Source of the DNA: Dehalococcoidales bacterium
GTDB taxonomy: Bacteria > Chloroflexota > Dehalococcoidia > Dehalococcoidales > RBG-16-60-22
Assembly (NCBI GenBank): GCA_002688435.1
Contig: NZCW01000043.1
Span: 23,730 to 87,729, forward strand
Length of the DNA: 64,000 bases
Direction: 5' to 3'
The translations under genes and the position numbers were made by a program. This document shows, piece by piece, positions 2,749 through 39,475 of the stretch; the stretch's first letter is position 1, and each line of letters begins with the position of its first letter. A model generated the notes under the pieces. That model saw nothing but the letters and a program-made list of their open reading frames with translations. It made no database searches and was not told the DNA's origin.

Positions 2749-3684
2749 CTAAGTTTTCCGGGCAAACTTCTGTATGGTTCGAGAACCCTTGTCAACCCCG
2801 GCCGAAGTCAGGGATACTTCGCCGATGTAGAGGTCCCTCTGCGAGTCAACGGCAACGGCGTGGGGCGCATGGAACAGGGCTTTTTCTTTCTCATTACCTT
2901 CATTACCCCAGCGCGCCAGCAGCTGGCCGTCAACCGTCCATATGCTCACCCGCAGGGAAAACTCGGATATATACACCGTTTCATCGTCATCAACAAAGAC
3001 ATCGGTAGGCCGGATGACGTCCGTCCATTCGCTGATGAATTTACCACTGGTGTCAAAAATTTGGACCCGGCTGTTTTCCCGGTCGGCAATCCACACCCGG
3101 TCCCGTTTGTCTATCCAGATGTTGTGGGGCAGCCGGAACTGGCCCGGGGCACCGCCCGGTTCACCCCAGGAGAAAAGCAGTTTGCCGTCATGAGAAAACT
3201 TGTGTATCTGCGCGTTACCATAACCGTCGGCGACGTAGATTTCACCAGTGGAATTCAATGCCACGCCGGTGGGACGATTGAACGGCGGAGCACCCCGCGT
3301 TATTCGCCCCAAGCTCTCCCAGAAATCAAAGGTCCGGGTATAGCCGGTGTCCGTCGGCTGACCTCTGGTACCCAGCGTCATGAGTAGCTCACCCTCGGGA
3401 GTAAACTTGGCGACGATGTGGTCTCGGTCATCGGTGCAGTAGATGGAATTGTCCGGACCGATGCAGCTACCGTGGGCGCGGTTAAAAAACCCCTCGCCCC
3501 ACCCGGTGAGCAGGTTCCCTTCCCGATCGAAGACCATAATCGGGCGCTCGCTCCGGTTAAGAATGTACACCCGGTCCTGCGCATCGGTGGAGATACCGCC
3601 GACGTCTTTGAATGACCCTCCTTGGGGAAGCTTGGCCCACCCGTCAACCAGCTCGTAAGTGTGTTTGCCGGCACCGTATTGCAT
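2749..3684 (-). CDS. NHL-repeat six-bladed beta-propeller protein
   Basis: Repeated motifs of the type (D)xxxxIYVAD / RVxIFD are present. I prefer the ATG at 3684 (MQYGAGKH...), which is preceded by AAGGGGGG 7 nt upstream. The track's GTG at 3747 has no SD. Confidence 0.7.
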   Translation of the reverse strand: MQYGAGKHTYELVDGWAKLPQGGSFKDVGGISTDAQDRVYILNRSERPIMVFDREGNLLTGWGEGFFNRAHGSCIGPDNSIYCTDDRDHIVAKFTPEGELLMTLGTRGQPTDTGYTRTFDFWESLGRITRGAPPFNRPTGVALNSTGEIYVADGYGNAQIHKFSHDGKLLFSWGEPGGAPGQFRLPHNIWIDKRDRVWIADRENSRVQIFDTSGKFISEWTDVIRPTDVFVDDDETVYISEFSLRVSIWTVDGQLLARWGNEGNEKEKALFHAPHAVAVDSQRDLYIGEVSLTSAGVDKGSRTIQKFARKT

Positions 3685-3857
3685 GTTCTGAACCCCCCTT
3701 TCCGAATTAGCCGGATAGATGAGCCGGAGACTGTCTTGATCAGTCACCCTGGCACAGGCTTAAGATAAAACGAGGCAACCAGAGCTAAACTGGCGACCAC
3801 GGGCCCTCACATCATCCTGGAAAAAGCAGAGACCATCTGCTTCCTTCCAGGGGGAAC

Positions 3858-4666: not shown

Positions 4667-7633
4667 ATGAGAAAAGAAATAGCTAAAATATGGGGTGTGG
4701 GCCTGACCGTAATCCTAGTGGCCAGCCTGCTGCTCGCGGCCGTGCCGATGGCTCAACCGGCACCGGCATCTGCTGGCACGCTTGGCTGGGGCGCAGAGAC
4801 CATCCCCACCACGACAGGTAAAGTCCTAGTCCCTGGAGCCAATGTTACTGACATGGATGTCTGTACAGCCGACCCGGATATCATCTGGGCCGTTGCTGAT
4901 ATTTCCTCAGGGGCAAGTAACGGAACCTACAAGTCTACCGACGCCGGTGTCTCCTGGACAAAGATAACCAATCACACCGGGGTAGGCACTGCCGCCGGAG
5001 GAGGCGTGCAACTGGTGGCCGTTGCCCCAGACGACCCGGACATCGTGGTGGTCGTGGCTGATAACAAGGAGGTCTATGCCACCACCAACGGTGGCACCAC
5101 TTGGGGCGACCTAACCACACCGAATGAGACCAGCACAACCGTTAATGACGCGGCAACCAATATCTACGACCTAGACGTCTCCACGGACGACGCCGGCATA
5201 AACTACGTTGGCGTGGCCGGTATTGATTCTGGGGCTAATGATGCCTCTGCAGACGCGATCAACACGGGTAATGTCTGGTACTTCAATATGGGCGCCGCGG
5301 CCCCGTCTTGGGTAGAAACAAACGACAAGACAGGTTTCGGTGCGGCTAACACGAACGTGACCACAGCTATGGCAGTGGCCTTCTCGCCTAGCTTCGCCTC
5401 GGACAAGGTAATGGTGGCCGTCACGGCGAATGTGACGGGAAATGTAAGTTTCGAGATGTGGAGCATGTCAAGCAAGGGCTGGAATGAGAGCGGTGCTTCC
5501 TTCACCAGCTACCCGGTATCACTGGTAGCTAACGCTGACGCCACGATTGCCACTCCGAGAGGTCTCTATGCCGCAGACATCTCACTGTCGCCGGACTACC
5601 TAGGCAGTGATGACTCCATGCGTACCGCCTTCGTCGGCTTGACGGTGGAAGGCTCTACCGCCAAGGACGGCATCTACCGTCTGAAAGACACCAGCAAGAA
5701 AGAGATGAAGGTGGCCATTGACGTGAACAGCGTGGCCTACGACGGCACCAACCTGGTCGCCGGCGAATTCGACAGCAACGTCTCCTATTACTGCGCCGAC
5801 CCGCTGGCAAGCTCGCCCACGGTCAGCACCACCGCTTCCCTGAAGAGAGCGGGTGGTAGCTCCCGTACCATAACTCGCTGGGCCGGCGTGGATGTACTCA
5901 CCGGAACCAGCGGCACGTCCAGCTCCCTCAATGTCTCCCGAGACAACGGCAAGAGCTACAACGGCATCAGCCTGGTTGATATCAGTACAGCAGCTGGGGA
6001 CGACAGTGGCACAAACGACCTTAACGATGTCGCGGTCTCAGCGGATGGCAGCACGATTTACCTGTCTGCTGATGACGGTACCAACCTGAGCATATGGCGC
6101 GGTGTTGATGGGGTCTGGGAAAGGGTGTTGGCGAAAGCTTCGGTAGCGAACACCATTGTCCGCATCGCTCCGGAAAACCCCGAATCGATCTACGTGGGGG
6201 AGACTGGTAGTGGCAAAAAGACCATCTACTACAGCAGCGAGGGTGGCGACACCAAGTGGTTCCAGCGCAGCTCCCGGTACGACGTCAAGGATTTCGCCGT
6301 GGAGAGCGACGATGTAATCTACGTAGCCGTGAATGCCGCCGGTTCGGTCAGCAAGAGCACCAATAGCGGCTTCACTTGGGGTACGTCCAAAGACGGCCTA
6401 CTGTTTGGTGGCAACAATGTCGCAATTCATAGCTTCGGTGAGGACCAACTGCTTCACACCAGCACCACCGGTTATGTCTCCTACTCCACCGACGGCAACT
6501 CCACCTGGGTGCAGATAAAGAAGCAGGTAAACTCCACATCCGGTACCATCCATGTGACTGCCAGCGGCCTGAACGACGGAGACTTCATCTACGCCGCCAG
6601 CGAAACCGCCAACCTGAATGTACGCCGATGGGAAGTCGGTACCAGCACTAGCTGGGGAGATATCATCAGCGGTACTCTCGCAACTGATCGTAATGCCGAT
6701 GACGACACCTCCGACACAGGCGAAACATTCCTCGCTTACGGAGCTGAGCTGATTGACGGCGTACTCTATGTCGTCGGCGTGGACGACGCGGCGGCGGATA
6801 GCTCATTGTTCCGGACCCTATCGCCGTCCACCGCTGCAAGCACCTCGGGCTGGAGCAACAAGCTGAGCACGAACGCTGACGATGAAGCGCTGACGCTCGG
6901 ATTCAGCTCATCCGATAGCGACGGCAACAACAAGCTATGGGGGATTGAGCCCGGTGATGACCAGCTCTTCAGCTTCGTCGATACCCTGCATACATTAGAG
7001 CCAGAACTGATCGGTCCGGAGGACGGAACGGAAATCGCGATAAACCCAGTGAGCGGTAACCCGTACAACGTGTCCTTCAGCTGGAGTCGTCCGTCCACGG
7101 CCAACAGATACAGTCTGGAGGTTTCTCTGGACGACGGCTTCTTCGAGGACGTCACCACCGAGACAGTACCTTCGACTACCACCACCACCACATCAGCTAC
7201 GATAGGCAAGGTACTGGTTGGTACTAACTTCAACGAAGGTACCACTTACTACTGGAGGGTCAGGGTAGCTTCGAACGGTCCGCTCTACAGCCCGTACTCC
7301 GAGGTCCGCAGCTTCACCGTTAGTTCGCTTCCGGCTCCTGCGGCGGCGGTAGTGGTTAAACCAGCTCCCGCGCCGATAGTCAGACCGGAGGTAGTGGTGG
7401 AGGCGCAGCCAGCACCGGTGATAAACCTTCCGGCACCGGTGGTAGAGGTACCCACGATAAACCTTCCGGCACCAGTGGTGAATATACCAGCACCACAAGA
7501 GGTGATCATCCCACCGGCACCGGCTCCCGCTCCCGCCGTTCCTACGGTAGCCATCTATGCCATCATCATCATCGGTGCCCTACTGGTGATCGCCTTGATC
7601 ATCCTGATAATGAGGACCCGACGCCCAATCTAA
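4667..7633 (+). CDS. Large secreted surface (S-layer-like) glycoprotein candidate. Its architecture is a signal peptide, Asp-box/BNR beta-propeller region, Fn3-like domain, Pro/Ala/Val-rich stalk and a C-terminal TM anchor.
   Basis: 988 aa. The N-terminal signal is MRKEIAKIWGVGLTVILVASLLLAAVPMAQPAPASA. Asp-box-like motifs include STDAGVSWTK, TTNGGTTWGD, SRDNGKSYNG, STNSGFTWG and STDGNSTW. About 14 N-X-S/T sequons are present by my count. A YYWRVRV Fn3-like motif is followed by the PAP-rich repeat INLPAPVVEVPT/INLPAPVVNIPA. The terminal helix is VAIYAIIIIGALLVIALIILIM followed by RTRRPI. Confidence 0.8.
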   Translation: MRKEIAKIWGVGLTVILVASLLLAAVPMAQPAPASAGTLGWGAETIPTTTGKVLVPGANVTDMDVCTADPDIIWAVADISSGASNGTYKSTDAGVSWTKITNHTGVGTAAGGGVQLVAVAPDDPDIVVVVADNKEVYATTNGGTTWGDLTTPNETSTTVNDAATNIYDLDVSTDDAGINYVGVAGIDSGANDASADAINTGNVWYFNMGAAAPSWVETNDKTGFGAANTNVTTAMAVAFSPSFASDKVMVAVTANVTGNVSFEMWSMSSKGWNESGASFTSYPVSLVANADATIATPRGLYAADISLSPDYLGSDDSMRTAFVGLTVEGSTAKDGIYRLKDTSKKEMKVAIDVNSVAYDGTNLVAGEFDSNVSYYCADPLASSPTVSTTASLKRAGGSSRTITRWAGVDVLTGTSGTSSSLNVSRDNGKSYNGISLVDISTAAGDDSGTNDLNDVAVSADGSTIYLSADDGTNLSIWRGVDGVWERVLAKASVANTIVRIAPENPESIYVGETGSGKKTIYYSSEGGDTKWFQRSSRYDVKDFAVESDDVIYVAVNAAGSVSKSTNSGFTWGTSKDGLLFGGNNVAIHSFGEDQLLHTSTTGYVSYSTDGNSTWVQIKKQVNSTSGTIHVTASGLNDGDFIYAASETANLNVRRWEVGTSTSWGDIISGTLATDRNADDDTSDTGETFLAYGAELIDGVLYVVGVDDAAADSSLFRTLSPSTAASTSGWSNKLSTNADDEALTLGFSSSDSDGNNKLWGIEPGDDQLFSFVDTLHTLEPELIGPEDGTEIAINPVSGNPYNVSFSWSRPSTANRYSLEVSLDDGFFEDVTTETVPSTTTTTTSATIGKVLVGTNFNEGTTYYWRVRVASNGPLYSPYSEVRSFTVSSLPAPAAAVVVKPAPAPIVRPEVVVEAQPAPVINLPAPVVEVPTINLPAPVVNIPAPQEVIIPPAPAPAPAVPTVAIYAIIIIGALLVIALIILIMRTRRPI
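7421..7479 (+). repeat. Tandem 36-nt period repeat inside the stalk-coding region
   Basis: ATAAACCTTCCGGCACCGGTGGT (7421-7443) recurs as ATAAACCTTCCGGCACCAGTGGT (7457-7479). Both copies encode INLPAPVV. Confidence 0.85.
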
Positions 7634-34576: not shown

Positions 34577-35275
34577 ATGAGGGTCGTTTTTATTGAGGAC
34601 GTGTCGGATATTGCGGAAACTGGTGAGATTAAAGAAGTGGCTGACGGCTATGCCCGGAACTTTCTCATTCCGAAAAAGCTGGCCATACTGGCGGACGTGC
34701 AGGCGGCGAATATCGTTGAGGCGCGGTTGAAAAAGAAGGCCCATCTTCAGGCCCAGATAGAAATGGAAATGACCGAACTGGCTAGACAGCTGGAAGGGCA
34801 GCAGATTGCTCTGAAAGCTCGGACCGGGAAGGAAGACCGGCTCTACGGCTCGGTTACCAACGCGGATATCGCCGAAGAGCTGTACCGGAGTACCGGCCTG
34901 GCGGTGGATAAAAGGAAAATAGAGCTGGACGAGCCCATCCGTGAAATAGGTAGCTATGAGATAACCATTAGGCTGACCAAAGATATCATTCCTGGGATAA
35001 AGCTTACCGTGACGGAAGAGGCGAAGAAGGGCGAGGATAAGGAGAAAAGGGAAAGCAAGAAGAAGAAAGTGAGCAAGCCTAAAGCGGAGAAGATAGGAGC
35101 GGCGGCAGAAGTAGTGGAGAAAACGGGCTTTCCGGTACCAGCAGGATCGGGGGAGAAAAAGGAAGGCAAGGAGAAGAAGAAAAGTAAGACCAAGAGAGAG
35201 AAGGTAGAGGTGGAGATAAGAGACGGAGAGGAAATAGCGGTCGAAAGGCCGGAAGAGAAAGGAGAGACGGGCTAG
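34577..35275 (+). CDS. rplI: 50S ribosomal protein L9 with a roughly 85-aa Lys/Glu-rich C-terminal extension
   Basis: The N-terminus MRVVFIEDVSDIAETGEIKEVADGYARNFLIPKKLA is canonical L9. The protein is 232 aa, versus about 150 aa for typical L9. The tail is EEAKKGEDKEKRESKKKKVSKPKAEK...KKEGKEKKKSKTKREKVEVE. Confidence 0.9.
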   Translation: MRVVFIEDVSDIAETGEIKEVADGYARNFLIPKKLAILADVQAANIVEARLKKKAHLQAQIEMEMTELARQLEGQQIALKARTGKEDRLYGSVTNADIAEELYRSTGLAVDKRKIELDEPIREIGSYEITIRLTKDIIPGIKLTVTEEAKKGEDKEKRESKKKKVSKPKAEKIGAAAEVVEKTGFPVPAGSGEKKEGKEKKKSKTKREKVEVEIRDGEEIAVERPEEKGETG

Positions 35276-35276
35276 C

Positions 35277-36653
35277 ATGAATGGCGATAAGTTACCGCCG
35301 CATGATCTTGACGCCGAGGAAGCGGTAATCGGCTCGCTGCTGATAGATGGCACGGCCATCTATCGCATCGCCACCTTTCTTCAGCCGCTGGACTTCTATC
35401 ATGAGCAAGCGAAGTGGCTATACCAGGCCTGCCTGTCGCTTTACGAGCGTAATGAAGCCATCAATCAGATAACGGTGGCGCAGGAGTTGGCGCGCCAGGG
35501 CAAGCTGGAGTCATGTGGTGGTGCCGCCTACCTGAGCCACCTGATAGCCGCCTGCCCCACTTCTCTGGATATTGAGCATTACGCCCAGATAGTCTATCGC
35601 CTCTCGGTGATGCGCGGCCTGATTGGTGCCGCCGACCAGATTGCGGCCGTTGGCTACGAATCTGGCTCGGATGTTGACGCTAGTCTCAGCCGGGCGGAAG
35701 ATATTTTATTTCGACTGCGCCACGGGCAGAGCCCGCGGGACTTTACGCATATCCGTCAAGTTCTGGACAAGTATTTTGAAGCCGTGTCTGCCTCCGAAGA
35801 GGAGGGAGCGCCTCAAGAGCCGATACCCTACGTGCTCTCTAATTTTGTCGGTCTGGACGAATTTCTGGGTGGGTTTCAGCGCTCTGACCTGATTATTGTG
35901 GCCGGCCGGCCAAGTATGGGTAAGACCAGCCTGGCGCTCGGCATCGCTCGGAACGTGGCCGTGGAGAAAAAGGCCTGCGTGGCCCTGTTCAGCCTGGAGA
36001 TGGCGCGGGAGTCATTGGTCCTGCGTCTGCTCTCCAGCGAGGCCGGGGTTAATTCCCAGAAGGTCCGTTTCGGGCAGCATAACGAGGATGAGGAGAGACG
36101 TATTATGGAAGCCACCGGCGTCCTCTCAGAATCGGCCGTCTATATTGATGACTCCCCTCAGCTCCGGGTAGCCGAACTAAGGAGTAAGGCCCGCCGTCTT
36201 CACTATGAGCACCCGGTTGACCTTATTATTGTTGACTACCTGCAGCTGATGCAAGGTGAAGGACGAGGGGAAAACCGGGTCCAGGAAATCAGCTATATCT
36301 CCCGTTCCCTCAAGGCACTAGCTCGTGACCTGAATGTGCCGGTGATGGCGGTCTCCCAGCTCAGCCGGGCGGTGGAGTGGCGCGCTTCACACGTACCGCA
36401 GCTTTCCGATCTGCGGGAAAGCGGTAGTATTGAGCAGGATGCTGATGTCGTCTTGCTTATCTACCGGGAAGAGTGGTACCACACCGAAGAGGAATGGCAA
36501 AGTCAGCACCCGGATAAAGAATACCCGCGAGAGGAAGCCGATATTATCATCGCCAAGCACCGTAACGGGCCTACCGGCCGGATAAAGCTACGTTTCCGGC
36601 ATAGCCTGGCCAGATTCTATAACTTTACCAGTGAAGAGCCGAGTTTATTATAA
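35277..36653 (+). CDS. dnaB: Replicative DNA helicase DnaB
   Basis: 458 aa. It has PPHDLDAEEAVIGSLL, Walker A GRPSMGKTS, LRESGSIEQDAD and IIAKHRNGPTG. Confidence 0.93.
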   Translation: MNGDKLPPHDLDAEEAVIGSLLIDGTAIYRIATFLQPLDFYHEQAKWLYQACLSLYERNEAINQITVAQELARQGKLESCGGAAYLSHLIAACPTSLDIEHYAQIVYRLSVMRGLIGAADQIAAVGYESGSDVDASLSRAEDILFRLRHGQSPRDFTHIRQVLDKYFEAVSASEEEGAPQEPIPYVLSNFVGLDEFLGGFQRSDLIIVAGRPSMGKTSLALGIARNVAVEKKACVALFSLEMARESLVLRLLSSEAGVNSQKVRFGQHNEDEERRIMEATGVLSESAVYIDDSPQLRVAELRSKARRLHYEHPVDLIIVDYLQLMQGEGRGENRVQEISYISRSLKALARDLNVPVMAVSQLSRAVEWRASHVPQLSDLRESGSIEQDADVVLLIYREEWYHTEEEWQSQHPDKEYPREEADIIIAKHRNGPTGRIKLRFRHSLARFYNFTSEEPSLL

Positions 36654-36719: not shown

Positions 36720-37430
36720 ATGGATGAGTTTAAAGGCTTTCCGGCCAGGATGGAGTTTACCTCTGTGCCCAACCTTTTCTTCAGCACGCTGCTACCTCGA
36801 ATAAACGATATGACCGAGTTGAAGGTAACCCTGTACCTGATGGCCGTACTTTACCGCAAGCGAGGCTACCCCCGTTTCGTTACCCTTAGCGAGCTGTTGA
36901 GGAGCGCCAACCTGATGAGCGGACTGGGCCGGGACACCCGGCCGCCGGGCGAAGTGCTGCGTAACGCCTTGGAGATGGCTGTCCGGCGAGGAACGGTCAT
37001 TCATCTGGCACTGGACCGGAGCGGGACATCCGAGGACATCTATTTACTGAATACCGAGTCTAACCGGGAGGTGGTGGCTAGGATTCAGAGCGGTGAGGTC
37101 AGGTTAAGCGGATTGAGGGCCGGGCAACCAGCCCTCGTGGCCGTTGAGGAAAGACCGGACATTTTCACGCTTTATGAGCAAAACATCGGGATGCTGACTC
37201 CGATGATTGCCGAGGAACTCTGTGAGGCGGAGAAACTGTATCCGGAAGCCTGGATTAAAGATGCTGTCAAAGAGGCGGTTTCTCTTAATAAAAGAAACAT
37301 CCGGTATATCGTCCGGATTCTGGAACGCTGGTCAGCGGAAGGTAAAGATGATGGAACACATCGGCGATATTCTAAGACAGACCCAGACAAATACATCAAA
37401 GGTAAATACGGACATATGGTCCGGCGCTGA
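36720..37430 (+). CDS. DnaD-domain replication initiation/primosome protein
   Basis: 236 aa. The C-terminal DnaD/DnaB_2-type domain reads FTLYEQNIGMLTPMIAEEL...AVSLNKRNIRYIVRILERWSAEG. The gene lies directly after dnaB. Confidence 0.7.
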   Translation: MDEFKGFPARMEFTSVPNLFFSTLLPRINDMTELKVTLYLMAVLYRKRGYPRFVTLSELLRSANLMSGLGRDTRPPGEVLRNALEMAVRRGTVIHLALDRSGTSEDIYLLNTESNREVVARIQSGEVRLSGLRAGQPALVAVEERPDIFTLYEQNIGMLTPMIAEELCEAEKLYPEAWIKDAVKEAVSLNKRNIRYIVRILERWSAEGKDDGTHRRYSKTDPDKYIKGKYGHMVRR

Positions 37431-38748
37431 AGGAGAAACTTCACCGGCCTCGGACTGCCCGGTCTGCCGAGAGGCCGGGTTTGTTCACCCGCTCCTGCCT
37501 TCGGGGAAGCCGGATTACAGCCAAGTTGTTGCCTGCTGTTGCACTCGGAAGGAGCCGGGGAGGGTACGGCAGGACCGCCTACAAAAATACAGTAACCTCG
37601 GTCCGCTTTCCCGTCTTACTTTCGCTAACCTGGTTCCCCAGGGCCGAAGCGGCGACTCGGTAAATCAGGAGAAATTCAGACGCGCTTACGAAGCGGCCAG
37701 AGCGTTTGCCGCCGCGCCCGAAGGGTGGCTCGTCCTGAGCGGACCCAGCGGCTGCGGCAAGACTCACTTGGCAGCGGCCATTGCCAACGAGCGCCTGGGC
37801 CGGGGCTATCCCATTTTCTACATGACGGTGCCCGACCTTCTGGATAACCTGCGGGCCACCTATAGTCTGGAGAGCGAGATGCCCTACGATGATTTCTTTA
37901 ATCAGATGCGTAATGCCCCATTGCTGGTCCTGGACGACCTGGGAGTCCAGACCGGTACTCCTTGGTCCAGGGAGAAGCTGGACCAGCTGTTTACTCACCG
38001 CTTTAACTGTGAACTGCCCACGGTAGTGGTGGCCATCGTGCCTCTGGAGAAGCTAGAAGAGAGGCTGCATACCCGGCTCACTGACTCCCGGCTGTGCCGC
38101 ACCTATGTGGTGGAAGAGAATTCGTCGTCCTCGCCGAGCTATACCGGCGGCCTGGGACTGGAACTGCTGAAAAGGATGACCTTTGATAACTTTGACTATA
38201 AGCGAGTGAATCTGTCGCCGGAGCAGCGCGAGAATCTGGAGCACGCTTACCGGGAAGCGATTAGCTTCGCCCAGTCCCCTGAGGGCTGGCTGGTGTTTCA
38301 GGGCGTTACCGGTTGCGGTAAGACTCACCTAGCGGCGGCCATTGCCAACTACTGCCTACAGGCGGGTAAACCCGCCCTGTTTATCATCGTGCCGGAGTTC
38401 TTGGACCACCTGCGCGCCACCTTCAATCCGGAGAGTCAGGTTTCCTATGACCAGCTCTTTGAAAGTGTTAAGAATGCGCCGCTGCTCATTCTTGATGACT
38501 TCGGTGAGCAGTCAACTACCCTCTGGGCACAGGAAAAGCTCTATCAGGTGATTAACTATCGCTACAACGCCCGGCTGGCCACCATACTTACCACTACCTG
38601 TTCCCTGGATGAAATAGAGAGTCCCATTAGCTCCCGGCTGGCCGACCCCCGTCTCAGCCTGGTGCTCAATATCATGGCACCTGACTATCGGACTGACTTG
38701 CGCTCTAATCAGAAGAGAGTGGCTCGCGGTGGTCGGAAAGGACGCTGA
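37348..38748 (+). CDS. DnaC/DnaI-like helicase loader with two tandem AAA+ modules and an N-terminal Cys-rich (zinc-binding-like) region
   Basis: Module 1 reads LTFANL...LVLSGPSGCGKTHLAAAIAN...LLVLDDLG. Module 2 reads MTFDNF...LVFQGVTGCGKTHLAAAIAN...LLILDDFG. The N-terminus has CPVC...CCC. I prefer the ATG at 37348 (GGAAGG SD 5 nt upstream). The track start at 37207 lies deep inside dnaD. Confidence 0.8.
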   Translation: MMEHIGDILRQTQTNTSKVNTDIWSGAEGETSPASDCPVCREAGFVHPLLPSGKPDYSQVVACCCTRKEPGRVRQDRLQKYSNLGPLSRLTFANLVPQGRSGDSVNQEKFRRAYEAARAFAAAPEGWLVLSGPSGCGKTHLAAAIANERLGRGYPIFYMTVPDLLDNLRATYSLESEMPYDDFFNQMRNAPLLVLDDLGVQTGTPWSREKLDQLFTHRFNCELPTVVVAIVPLEKLEERLHTRLTDSRLCRTYVVEENSSSSPSYTGGLGLELLKRMTFDNFDYKRVNLSPEQRENLEHAYREAISFAQSPEGWLVFQGVTGCGKTHLAAAIANYCLQAGKPALFIIVPEFLDHLRATFNPESQVSYDQLFESVKNAPLLILDDFGEQSTTLWAQEKLYQVINYRYNARLATILTTTCSLDEIESPISSRLADPRLSLVLNIMAPDYRTDLRSNQKRVARGGRKGR

Positions 38749-38779: not shown

Positions 38780-39475
38780 ATGGAAATACTGGATAATATT
38801 CCGGTCAGGATAGACTTGGAATCGATGGTAAAACGGATGCGTCTGCGCAGTAGAAATGAAGGTATTGAAGAGAACATACGGGAATTAATTGGGCTTGCCC
38901 GTGCCGTTGCTAGGCCGAAAGCGGTCTTCAAGATTTCACCGGTGGAGAAGAAAAATGGTGATTCGCTGGAGATTGACGGAGTAAGGTTTACCAGCCGTGT
39001 CCTCCGGGTCAACCTGGATGAGATAGATACCGTTTATCCCTATGTGGTCACCTGTGGTAGAGAAGTGGATGAAATAGATATCCCACCCCACGAGTTTATG
39101 AGATTTTATTTGATGGACCAGATTAAAGAGATGCTGGTACACTCGTCGCTCATCTATCTTCATGATTACCTGAGGGAAAAACACGCCTGTTGACAGATGT
39201 CAAGGATGTCTCCAGGTTCTGGAGCCGCAAATGTCTGGCCGATAACCCAGCAAAAAGTACTGTTTTCTCTCTTTGGTAATGTTGAGGAATTAATTGGGGT
39301 GAAACTGACCGACAGGTGCTTGATGATGCCGATAAAGTCGGTTTCCGGGGTATTTTTCCCCAACGAAAACAAGTTTGAAAGTTGCCAGTTATGTCCGCGG
39401 GAGGGATGTGTGGGTCGGAGAGCGCCACATGACCTGGCACTGGTGAAGAAATACTGGGGAGAAAGTGAAGAATAA
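38780..39475 (+). CDS. Methionine-synthase (MetH) activation-domain-like protein, a single frame interrupted by an in-frame TGA at 39191-39193
   Basis: ORFs 38780..39193 and 39197..39475 are in the same frame. The downstream part reads SPGSG..WPITQQKVLFSLF..IGVKLTDRCLMMPIKSVSGVFF. This matches the E. coli MetH reactivation-domain motifs APGYPACPEH...MKLTESFAMWPGASVSGWYF. The upstream part ends LHDYLREKHAC (compare MetH EYLHERVRK). Confidence 0.6.

Follow-up and report, generated by a model that had tools for sequence, protein, structure and literature searches.

A phylum-wide Chloroflexota helicase loader with two tandem AAA+ modules in one chain, and its proposed action as a covalent asymmetric dimer

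How many loader ATPase sites and helicase contacts are needed to crack open and release the DnaB ring is an open issue in replication initiation, and all of the structural work that we found concerns single-module DnaC or DnaI at 6:6. For E. coli DnaC, the reference residues are Walker A K112, Walker B E170, sensor I N203, the arginine (Arg) coupler R216, the Arg finger R220 and sensor II R237, along with a tetrad that contacts single-stranded DNA (ssDNA), K143/F146/S177/Y179, and the N203A substitution abolishes ATPase activity (Puri et al., PMC8213410). DnaI carries an N-terminal Zn-binding helicase-interaction module (PMC1636449, PMC2673437), and in a crystal structure a Geobacillus DnaB hexamer (BstDnaB6) binds three dimers of Bacillus subtilis DnaI (BsuDnaI), with the two protomers of each dimer contacting DnaB differently (PMC3791466). 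On the genomic side, dna[CI] genes are thought to be phage-derived, and Brezellec et al. (2016; PMC5109545) established the mutual exclusivity of dna[CI] and dciA that defines domesticated dna[CI] loaders; domestication in the Chloroflexi is recorded there once, and duplication goes unmentioned. Here we describe a DnaC/DnaI-like loader gene that encodes two AAA+ modules in one polypeptide. It lies in a 64,000-nucleotide stretch of a Dehalococcoidales bacterium (assembly GCA_002688435.1, contig NZCW01000043.1, positions 23,730 to 87,729 of the forward strand), hereafter the window, to which all coordinates below refer.

The gene and the parts of its product are as follows.

37348..38748, plus strand: tandem-AAA+ helicase loader gene, 466 aa plus stop (protein P0001)
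37348..37449, plus strand, up to the next part at 37450: N-terminal segment, residues 1-34, predicted disordered (AlphaFold2, AF2, predicted local distance difference test, pLDDT, <50), with 'MEHIG' kept in orthologues
37450..37605, plus strand: Cys4 module (C37-x2-C40 ... C63-x-C65) plus helix, residues 35-86, the putative zinc-binding and helicase-binding head
37606..38112, plus strand: AAA+ module 1, residues 87-255, AF2 pLDDT 80-95
38113..38163, plus strand: inter-module linker, residues 256-272, poorly conserved and predicted disordered, carrying the remnant of the module 1 sensor II motif
38164..38694, plus strand: AAA+ module 2, residues 273-449, the more conserved of the two modules
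38695..38748, plus strand: C-terminal tail, residues 450-466 plus stop, basic and poorly conserved, pLDDT <50, sequence RSNQKRVARGGRKGR

Compared with itself by BLASTP, the protein aligns residues 87-249 with residues 274-436 at 45% identity over 163 ungapped residues (E 3e-51). The Pfam family IstB_IS21 (PF01695) matches it in two stretches, with 108.4 bits against a gathering cut-off of 24.1, and in a genome-wide scan each single module exceeded that cut-off by itself, at 58.3 and 51.7 bits. The motifs come in pairs, given here with module 1 before module 2: LTFANL and MTFDNF; Walker A GPSGCGKTHLAAAIAN and GVTGCGKTHLAAAIAN; and LLVLDDLG and LLILDDFG around Walker B. A reading made earlier from the sequence alone (the sequence-only reading) had proposed the tandem duplication and quoted TFxNF-type, Walker A and Walker B motifs, and all of these are present. 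It had also cited a CCC run in the Cys-rich region, and here it needs trimming, as C63 and C65 are conserved and C64 is variable among orthologues; the conserved cluster is CxxC...CxC, and C37, C40, C63 and C65 are invariant in 130 proteins of two classes (78 from Dehalococcoidia and 52 from Anaerolineae). The head is probably zinc-binding, and, by analogy with the Zn module at the N terminus of B. subtilis DnaI (DnaI-N), it would also be the part that binds the helicase. The linker has a mean pairwise identity of 34% among Dehalococcoidia orthologues, versus 63-70% in the modules, and its residues 259-269 have pLDDT values below 50. The open frame surrounding the gene is 37207..38748 on the plus strand. 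At 37348 the sequence reads ATG ATG, with GGAAGG 5 nt upstream, and, because orthologues open with 'MEHIG...', translation is taken to start at 37348 or 37351. An internal start at M277 was considered and rejected, as its purine-rich stretch abuts the ATG directly, with zero spacing.

The tandem loader is phylum-wide and not peculiar to the source genome. It has more than 8000 relatives in the protein database, the best 120 of which are 424-671 aa long (118 of them 424-475 aa) and 66-91% identical at 91-100% query coverage; these 120 are labelled 'ATP-binding protein' or 'DnaC' and come from Dehalococcoidales, Dehalococcoidia or Chloroflexota. In species-representative genomes, the number of encoding loci is at least 562, with Dehalococcoidia metagenome-assembled genomes (MAGs) accounting for every one of the best 80. 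Among cultured organisms, exact look-ups found the tandem protein in Dehalococcoides mccartyi (e.g., AAW40180.1 of strain 195, annotated 'ATP-binding protein, DnaC family') and in Dehalogenimonas. In a survey of 201 evenly drawn Chloroflexota genomes, full-length tandem matches occurred in every Dehalococcoidia family sampled and in at least ten other families, which answers the concern in the sequence-only reading that orthologues might universally have a single module. Moreover, a tandem protein from another Chloroflexota family, used as query, retrieves thousands of Anaerolineae/Anaerolineales proteins of 420-480 aa. The tandem architecture at the dnaB-dnaD locus is thus conserved across Dehalococcoidia (closed D. 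mccartyi genomes included), Anaerolineae and other Chloroflexota. It is the normal form of the loader in two large Chloroflexota classes and apparently an undescribed one: the sequences, generically named, have been openly available from the first D. mccartyi genome onward, and the full-text literature, with most subscription journals outside its coverage, yielded no description of a tandem-AAA+ Chloroflexota loader.

The surroundings of the gene are those of a replication locus, beginning with the following block.

34577..35275, plus strand: rplI (ribosomal protein L9), Pfam Ribosomal_L9_N and Ribosomal_L9_C, first gene of the rplI-dnaB-dnaD-loader block
35277..36653, plus strand: dnaB, replicative helicase, 458 aa, Pfam DnaB_C at 335.8 bits and DnaB N-terminal domain at 103.5 bits
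36720..37430, plus strand: DnaD-domain gene, 236 aa, Pfam DnaB_2 (PF07261) at 37.1 bits and NCBIfam DnaD_dom at 41.4 bits

The loader presumably acts on the dnaB product. The last 83 nt of the dnaD-like gene, at its 3′ end, also belong to the loader gene, read there in a different frame, and the two genes are probably translationally coupled through this overlap; the further neighbors are a Met_synt_B12-like open reading frame (ORF) and a transketolase gene. Fifty-two related Chloroflexota loci were fetched for synteny (in the labels used below, L is a locus, G a genome and f a family). At nearly all of them, tandem and single-module alike, the loader gene is either next after dnaB or separated from it by a DnaD-domain gene. 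The DnaD-domain gene stands between the two in most loci and is missing from a few (among them L019, L021, L024-L026, L031 and L034), and rplI lies upstream in about half, seen where the fetched stretch extends that far. The rplI-dnaB-dnaD-loader context noted in the sequence-only reading is thus borne out, both by Pfam and NCBIfam matches and by conserved order in related loci.

In the source genome, a profile scan found the loader to be the sole DnaC-like gene, with dnaA the only other initiator-clade AAA+ gene, and no DciA was found there. Across the 201 Chloroflexota genomes, DciA and the loader are mutually exclusive: DciA is present in 49, all with weak loader matches only (E 1e-11 or worse), and in none of those with a strong loader match. 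This agrees with the dna[CI]/dciA exclusivity described previously (PMC5109545), and in the carrier lineages the tandem loader replaces DciA. The domesticated loaders of Brezellec et al. are chromosomal, conserved vertically, linked to replication genes and exclusive of dciA, and the gene described here has all four properties. As a separate observation, genomes of one family (f19; e.g., G009, G022, G034, G046 and G058) have no DnaC-type loader match and no DciA match, save a weak one in G142.

The source genome is a fragmented MAG of 43 contigs, and one might therefore ask whether the duplication is an artefact of assembly or gene calling, created by an expanded repeat or by genes fused through a frameshift. 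However, the DNA of the two modules is just 55% identical, and 36% at third codon positions, with 15 nt as the longest identical run; identity this low, with third positions saturated, means that the duplication is old and not an assembler's repeat. In addition, the same single ORF is encoded in hundreds of independent assemblies, including closed genomes of 1.4-1.9 Mb, and among the RefSeq D. mccartyi proteins. On these two grounds the artefact, which the sequence-only reading had itself raised, was rejected, and we give it practically no chance; the two modules derive from an old internal duplication. It is scarcely more credible, and in our judgment very improbable, that what sits beside dnaB is not a chromosomal loader but a transposition helper of the IS21 IstB type, or a replication module from a phage or plasmid. 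The top Pfam model is indeed IstB_IS21, and the suspected phage origin of dna[CI] genes (PMC5109545) fits the phage version. But no IstA transposase or phage gene lies near the loader gene, the IstB equivalog score is 131 bits against a cut-off of 200, the gene is single-copy and mutually exclusive with DciA, and its position after dnaB, mostly via dnaD, is kept at nearly every locus across the phylum. The conserved synteny, the lack of any other DnaC-like gene and the absence of DciA here, with its exclusivity elsewhere, thus support a genuine loader and not an IstB, as the sequence-only reading had argued from gene context.

As judged by aligned motifs, both modules retain their nucleotide-binding residues, an Arg finger and equivalents of the ssDNA-binding residues of E. 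coli DnaC. Module 1 has Walker A K138, Walker B D196/D197, Arg coupler R239 and Arg finger R243, with R169/Y172/T204/W206 as its ssDNA tetrad; the sensor I Asn has been lost (I230), and sensor II has decayed to 'SPSYT', with no Arg and with T266 falling within the linker. Module 2 has Walker A K325, Walker B D383/D384, Arg finger R430 and sensor II R448 ('APDYR'), with R356/F359/T391/W393 as the tetrad, and is changed at sensor I (T417) and at the Arg-coupler position (P426). The description of two complete modules in the sequence-only reading therefore stands in part: Walker A, Walker B and the Arg finger are retained in both, the finger being recognized by motif and spacing, and module 1 is incomplete at sensors I and II. 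The fingers R243 and R430 were assigned by a [DE]R-x3-R motif and its spacing to strand beta-5 and sensor II. The same motif occurs in DnaA box VII (Arg finger DnaA R285) and is visible in the DnaA of the source genome itself. The E. coli DnaC sequence 'DSYR' is what we take to be the counterpart of this sensor II motif.

The orthologues sharpen this pattern of conservation and decay. In both modules, all 78 Dehalococcoidia and all 52 Anaerolineae proteins keep Walker A (GxxGxGK[ST]) and Walker B (hhhhD[DE]). Among the Dehalococcoidia, R and W of the tetrad are invariant in both modules, T is kept in 74-75 of 78 and the aromatic position is F or Y (in module 1, R169 and W206 in 78/78 and T204 in 75/78). 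The Arg finger is present in 69/78 as R243 and in 78/78 as R430. The sensor II Arg is found in 75/78 for module 2 and in none for module 1 in a set of 57 orthologues. The sensor I Asn is rare in both, with 1/78 in module 1 and 4/78 in module 2, and is present in 16/17 single-module relatives and in module 1 of all 52 Anaerolineae proteins. Module 2 evolves more slowly than module 1 in the Dehalococcoidia (mean pairwise identity of 70% and 63%). In the Anaerolineae, module 1 is the fully canonical one, with 'APDYR' in most in addition to the sensor I Asn; in module 2, sensor I is occupied by Ser, Ala or Val, and 43/52 carry His at the sensor II position. Single-module relatives at the same locus retain the canonical set. 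By these motifs, the polarity of the asymmetry is reversed between the classes, with the fuller set for hydrolysis predicted in module 2 of the Dehalococcoidia and in module 1 of the Anaerolineae.

The explanation that we favor, and consider likely, is that the protein is a resident replicative-helicase loader of the DnaC/DnaI/IstB branch working as a hard-wired asymmetric dimer. Each chain would be a covalent loader dimer behind a single head, which would dock on the C-terminal tier of DnaB. One of the two sites would be competent for hydrolysis, or more tuned to it, and the other would bind ATP and DNA with slow turnover. Since the DnaC/DnaI spiral under DnaB consists of six AAA+ modules, three chains could suffice, which by analogy would give a DnaB6:loader3 complex with three heads; together, their six modules would make up the spiral, dependent on ATP and ssDNA, by which DnaB is opened and loaded. 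The tandem chain would in this way fix covalently the pairing seen in the 'trimer of DnaI dimers' on Geobacillus DnaB, and the DnaD-like protein would recruit the complex to the origin, as in Firmicutes. A fuller version, in which DnaB is loaded by three covalent asymmetric dimers so that catalytic and merely nucleotide-/DNA-binding sites alternate round the spiral, with opposite polarity in the two classes, is a tentative proposal that we would put at somewhat below even chances.

Several observations weigh against the hard-wired dimer or the loader role that it presupposes. In the Dehalococcoidia, the canonical Asn of sensor I is missing from module 2 as well, replaced by R, C, S or T, and, given that N203A abolishes the ATPase of E. 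coli DnaC, neither site may hydrolyze ATP efficiently. An ungapped HMMER alignment shifts R243 and R430 by four residues, opposite E. coli R216, and the Arg-finger assignment is marked as inferred because of it. The N-terminal 102 residues, including the Cys-rich head, match no Pfam family (DnaI_N included), even at E 10. The source genome, at 1.2 Mb, is merely ~81% complete, which leaves room for a second loader. Finally, AF2 monomer runs with 57 and then 130 aligned sequences modeled the modules themselves with confidence but gave no confident packing between them (predicted TM, pTM, 0.45 and 0.50), and a head-to-tail AAA+ interface within the chain is conjectural. The best true superposition of the AF2 module model is on single-module Aquifex DnaC (3ECC), with a TM score of 0.78 and a root-mean-square deviation (rmsd) of 2.7 A by Foldseek. 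The top Foldseek hits in the PDB were chains of p97, NSF and Rix7, at TM 0.22-0.26 and rmsd 18-24 A; these superpositions are poor, reflect the order of two AAA+ domains and not geometry, and were discounted as support for a stacked D1/D2 double ring.

The asymmetry and the flexible linker could also be accommodated by six chains per DnaB hexamer, each placing only one of its modules in the spiral and using the other for a different task, for example to contact DnaA or DnaD, to inhibit or time the reaction from within, or to build a second tier. The studied DnaC and DnaI proteins each use one helicase-binding head per DnaB subunit (PMC8213410, PMC3791466), which is what six chains would provide here; AF2 predicts no fixed packing across the linker, one module is catalytically degenerate, and the lineage without module 1 (genome G087, described below) still has the head and module 2 at the same locus. 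Set against this, the tetrad, Walker A/B and Arg finger are near-invariant in both modules, as expected if both belong to the spiral on DNA, a single hexamer would have little room for twelve AAA+ modules beneath it, and the DnaI 'trimer of dimers' is a precedent for pairs as the unit. On balance, we regard the six-chain arrangement as unlikely, though it is the main rival. Less probable again is that the Dehalococcoidia keep module 1 for structure only, as an inactive pseudo-ATPase that spaces or scaffolds what would functionally be a single-ATPase loader. Its loss of both sensors, its replaced Arg finger in 9/78, its faster evolution (63% versus 70% identity) and the ability of G087 to do without it all speak for such decay. 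The Walker A Lys and Walker B Asp-Asp are nevertheless kept in 78/78 and the ssDNA tetrad is conserved, and this conservation points to selection on nucleotide and DNA binding; moreover, in the Anaerolineae it is module 1 that is fully canonical.

The history of the two modules was approached through a maximum-likelihood tree of 89 modules. In the free tree, module 1 of the Dehalococcoidia and of six other families forms a group (99/93*), apart from the module 2 copies (bar that of L034, on a very long branch), from the single-module proteins and from the Anaerolineae-type module 1, and this topology hints at two duplication events. A tree constrained to separate all module 1 from all module 2 sequences is not worse (log-likelihood, lnL, +6.7; approximately unbiased, AU, test p 0.63), so that one ancient duplication and two separate ones are both possible. 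One Dehalococcoidia genome, G087 (L051, G087:C16, ORF 4686-5582), has the head and one module in a 299-aa frame at the same dnaB-dnaD locus; another genome of its family (f8), G186, has the tandem form. The G087 module nests within the Dehalococcoidia module 2 clade, beside the module 2 of its family-mate (100/86*), a placement that clearly indicates secondary loss of module 1 in this lineage.

Single-module loaders elsewhere in the phylum have features of their own. In other Chloroflexota families, 300-420 aa of low-complexity sequence rich in Pro, Ala, Gln and Arg precede the Cys4 head (L041 3996-5684; L053 1971-3941, minus strand; L055 1983-3611, minus strand; also L040, L042, L052 and L054), and in the two such extensions scanned, those of L041 and L053, no Pfam family was matched. 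At L043 (G030:C86), away from any dnaB or dnaD, two closely related single-module DnaC-like genes lie next to each other on the minus strand (1962-2720 and 2817-3830, frames of 253 and 338 aa), an unfused form of the loader duplication. This gene pair is possibly on a mobile element.

If the version with alternating catalytic and binding sites is right, helicase loading would require only roughly half of the loader's ATP sites, and likewise of its helicase-binding heads, and the tandem loader would be the homo-oligomeric bacterial equivalent of loaders that are heteromeric, such as ORC-Cdc6 or RFC. With two AAA+ modules, one head and one degenerate site per chain, it is a natural test system for counting sites, and it is relevant both to the 'trimer of dimers' idea and to the evolution of a heteromer-like division of labor in AAA+ homo-oligomers. 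The mechanism itself is not strange; what the Chloroflexota offer is a natural experiment, conserved by evolution, on the stoichiometry of a loader and the use of its ATP sites. There is also a lesson for annotation, in that databases file such proteins under 'ATP-binding protein', 'DnaC', 'DnaI' or even 'DnaA'.

Other features of the locus are recorded here for completeness. The rplI product has 232 aa, of which the L9 domains end at residue 146, leaving a very Lys/Glu-rich C-terminal extension of ~85 aa (KKGEDKEKRESKKKK...). Two database proteins on short contigs, P0003 (638 aa) and P0067 (671 aa, also with PF07261), resemble fusions of DnaD and the loader; the fusion may be genuine, or it may come from a frameshift error within the 83-nt dnaD/loader overlap. 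In L018, L028, L047, L053 and L055, the dnaB frames are 882-1104 aa, about twice the usual length, with the DnaB match divided into an N-terminal part and a short C-terminal part, the pattern expected for an intein-type insertion. Downstream of the loader, at 38780-39475 on the plus strand, two same-frame ORFs (137 and 92 aa) are divided by a single TGA at 39191-39193 and jointly make up a conserved protein of ~230 aa with a Met_synt_B12 (activation-domain-like) match. A selenocysteine tRNA gene (tRNA-SeC) does lie on contig C40 of the genome, and the small hairpin just after the TGA lacks significance (z -0.87). Selenocysteine was rejected for this site because 111 of the 120 full-length homologues that cross it carry Gly at that point; a nonsense change from GGA to TGA, or else a sequencing error, is the most likely origin of the stop.

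Among known systems, the closest solved structures for both modules are E. coli DnaC (6QEL), Aquifex DnaC (3ECC) and Bacillus/Geobacillus DnaI (4M4W, 2W58). E. coli DnaC (6QEL/6QEM; PRK07952) is the top PDB match for both modules (E 8e-16 and 4e-15). In common are the initiator-clade AAA+ fold, Walker A/B, the [DE]R-x3-R coupler and finger motif, equivalents of the ssDNA tetrad and the role of a dedicated DnaB partner, and the presumed DnaC 'D(S/Y)YR' sensor II motif has its counterpart in module 2. On the other hand, DnaC has a single AAA+ module, its helicase-binding domain is helical and free of Cys, its sensor I Asn is absent from both modules here, and E. coli has no DnaD partner, unlike this locus; the score for the DnaC equivalog (NF005931), 135.1 bits, falls below the cut-off of 357. 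B. subtilis/Geobacillus DnaI (4M4W, 2W58; PRK08939) is an AAA+ loader that works with a DnaD-family protein, a partnership for which this locus has the counterpart. It differs in having a single AAA+ module and a single head per chain, and in its zinc ligands, Cys3His in DnaI against Cys4 (CxxC...CxC) for the putative metal site here. The DnaI equivalog (NF006505) likewise scores below its cut-off (116.4 versus 228 bits), and Pfam DnaI_N has no match to the head.

The top-scoring curated family is PRK08116, which with PRK06835 and PRK06921 belongs to the uncharacterized, single-module DnaC-like ATP-binding proteins of Firmicutes type; the PRK06835 and PRK06921 alignments reach into the Cys-rich head (residues 25-36 onward). 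The PRK08116 cut-off of 189 bits is exceeded by the whole protein (216.3) and not by its halves (101.4 and 119.1), because the scores of the two modules sum. With IS21 IstB (5BQ5, 8Q3W; NF038214), the loader shares Pfam family PF01695 and the AAA+ clade. It differs from IstB in its two modules, in the lack of an IstA neighbor and in its conserved synteny with dnaB, and its equivalog score of 130.8 bits is below the cut-off of 200. Type II AAA+ proteins (p97/Cdc48, NSF, Rix7) likewise have two AAA+ modules per polypeptide, and they often have one active and one degenerate ring. They belong to another AAA+ clade, however, and the resemblance is an analogy of design only.

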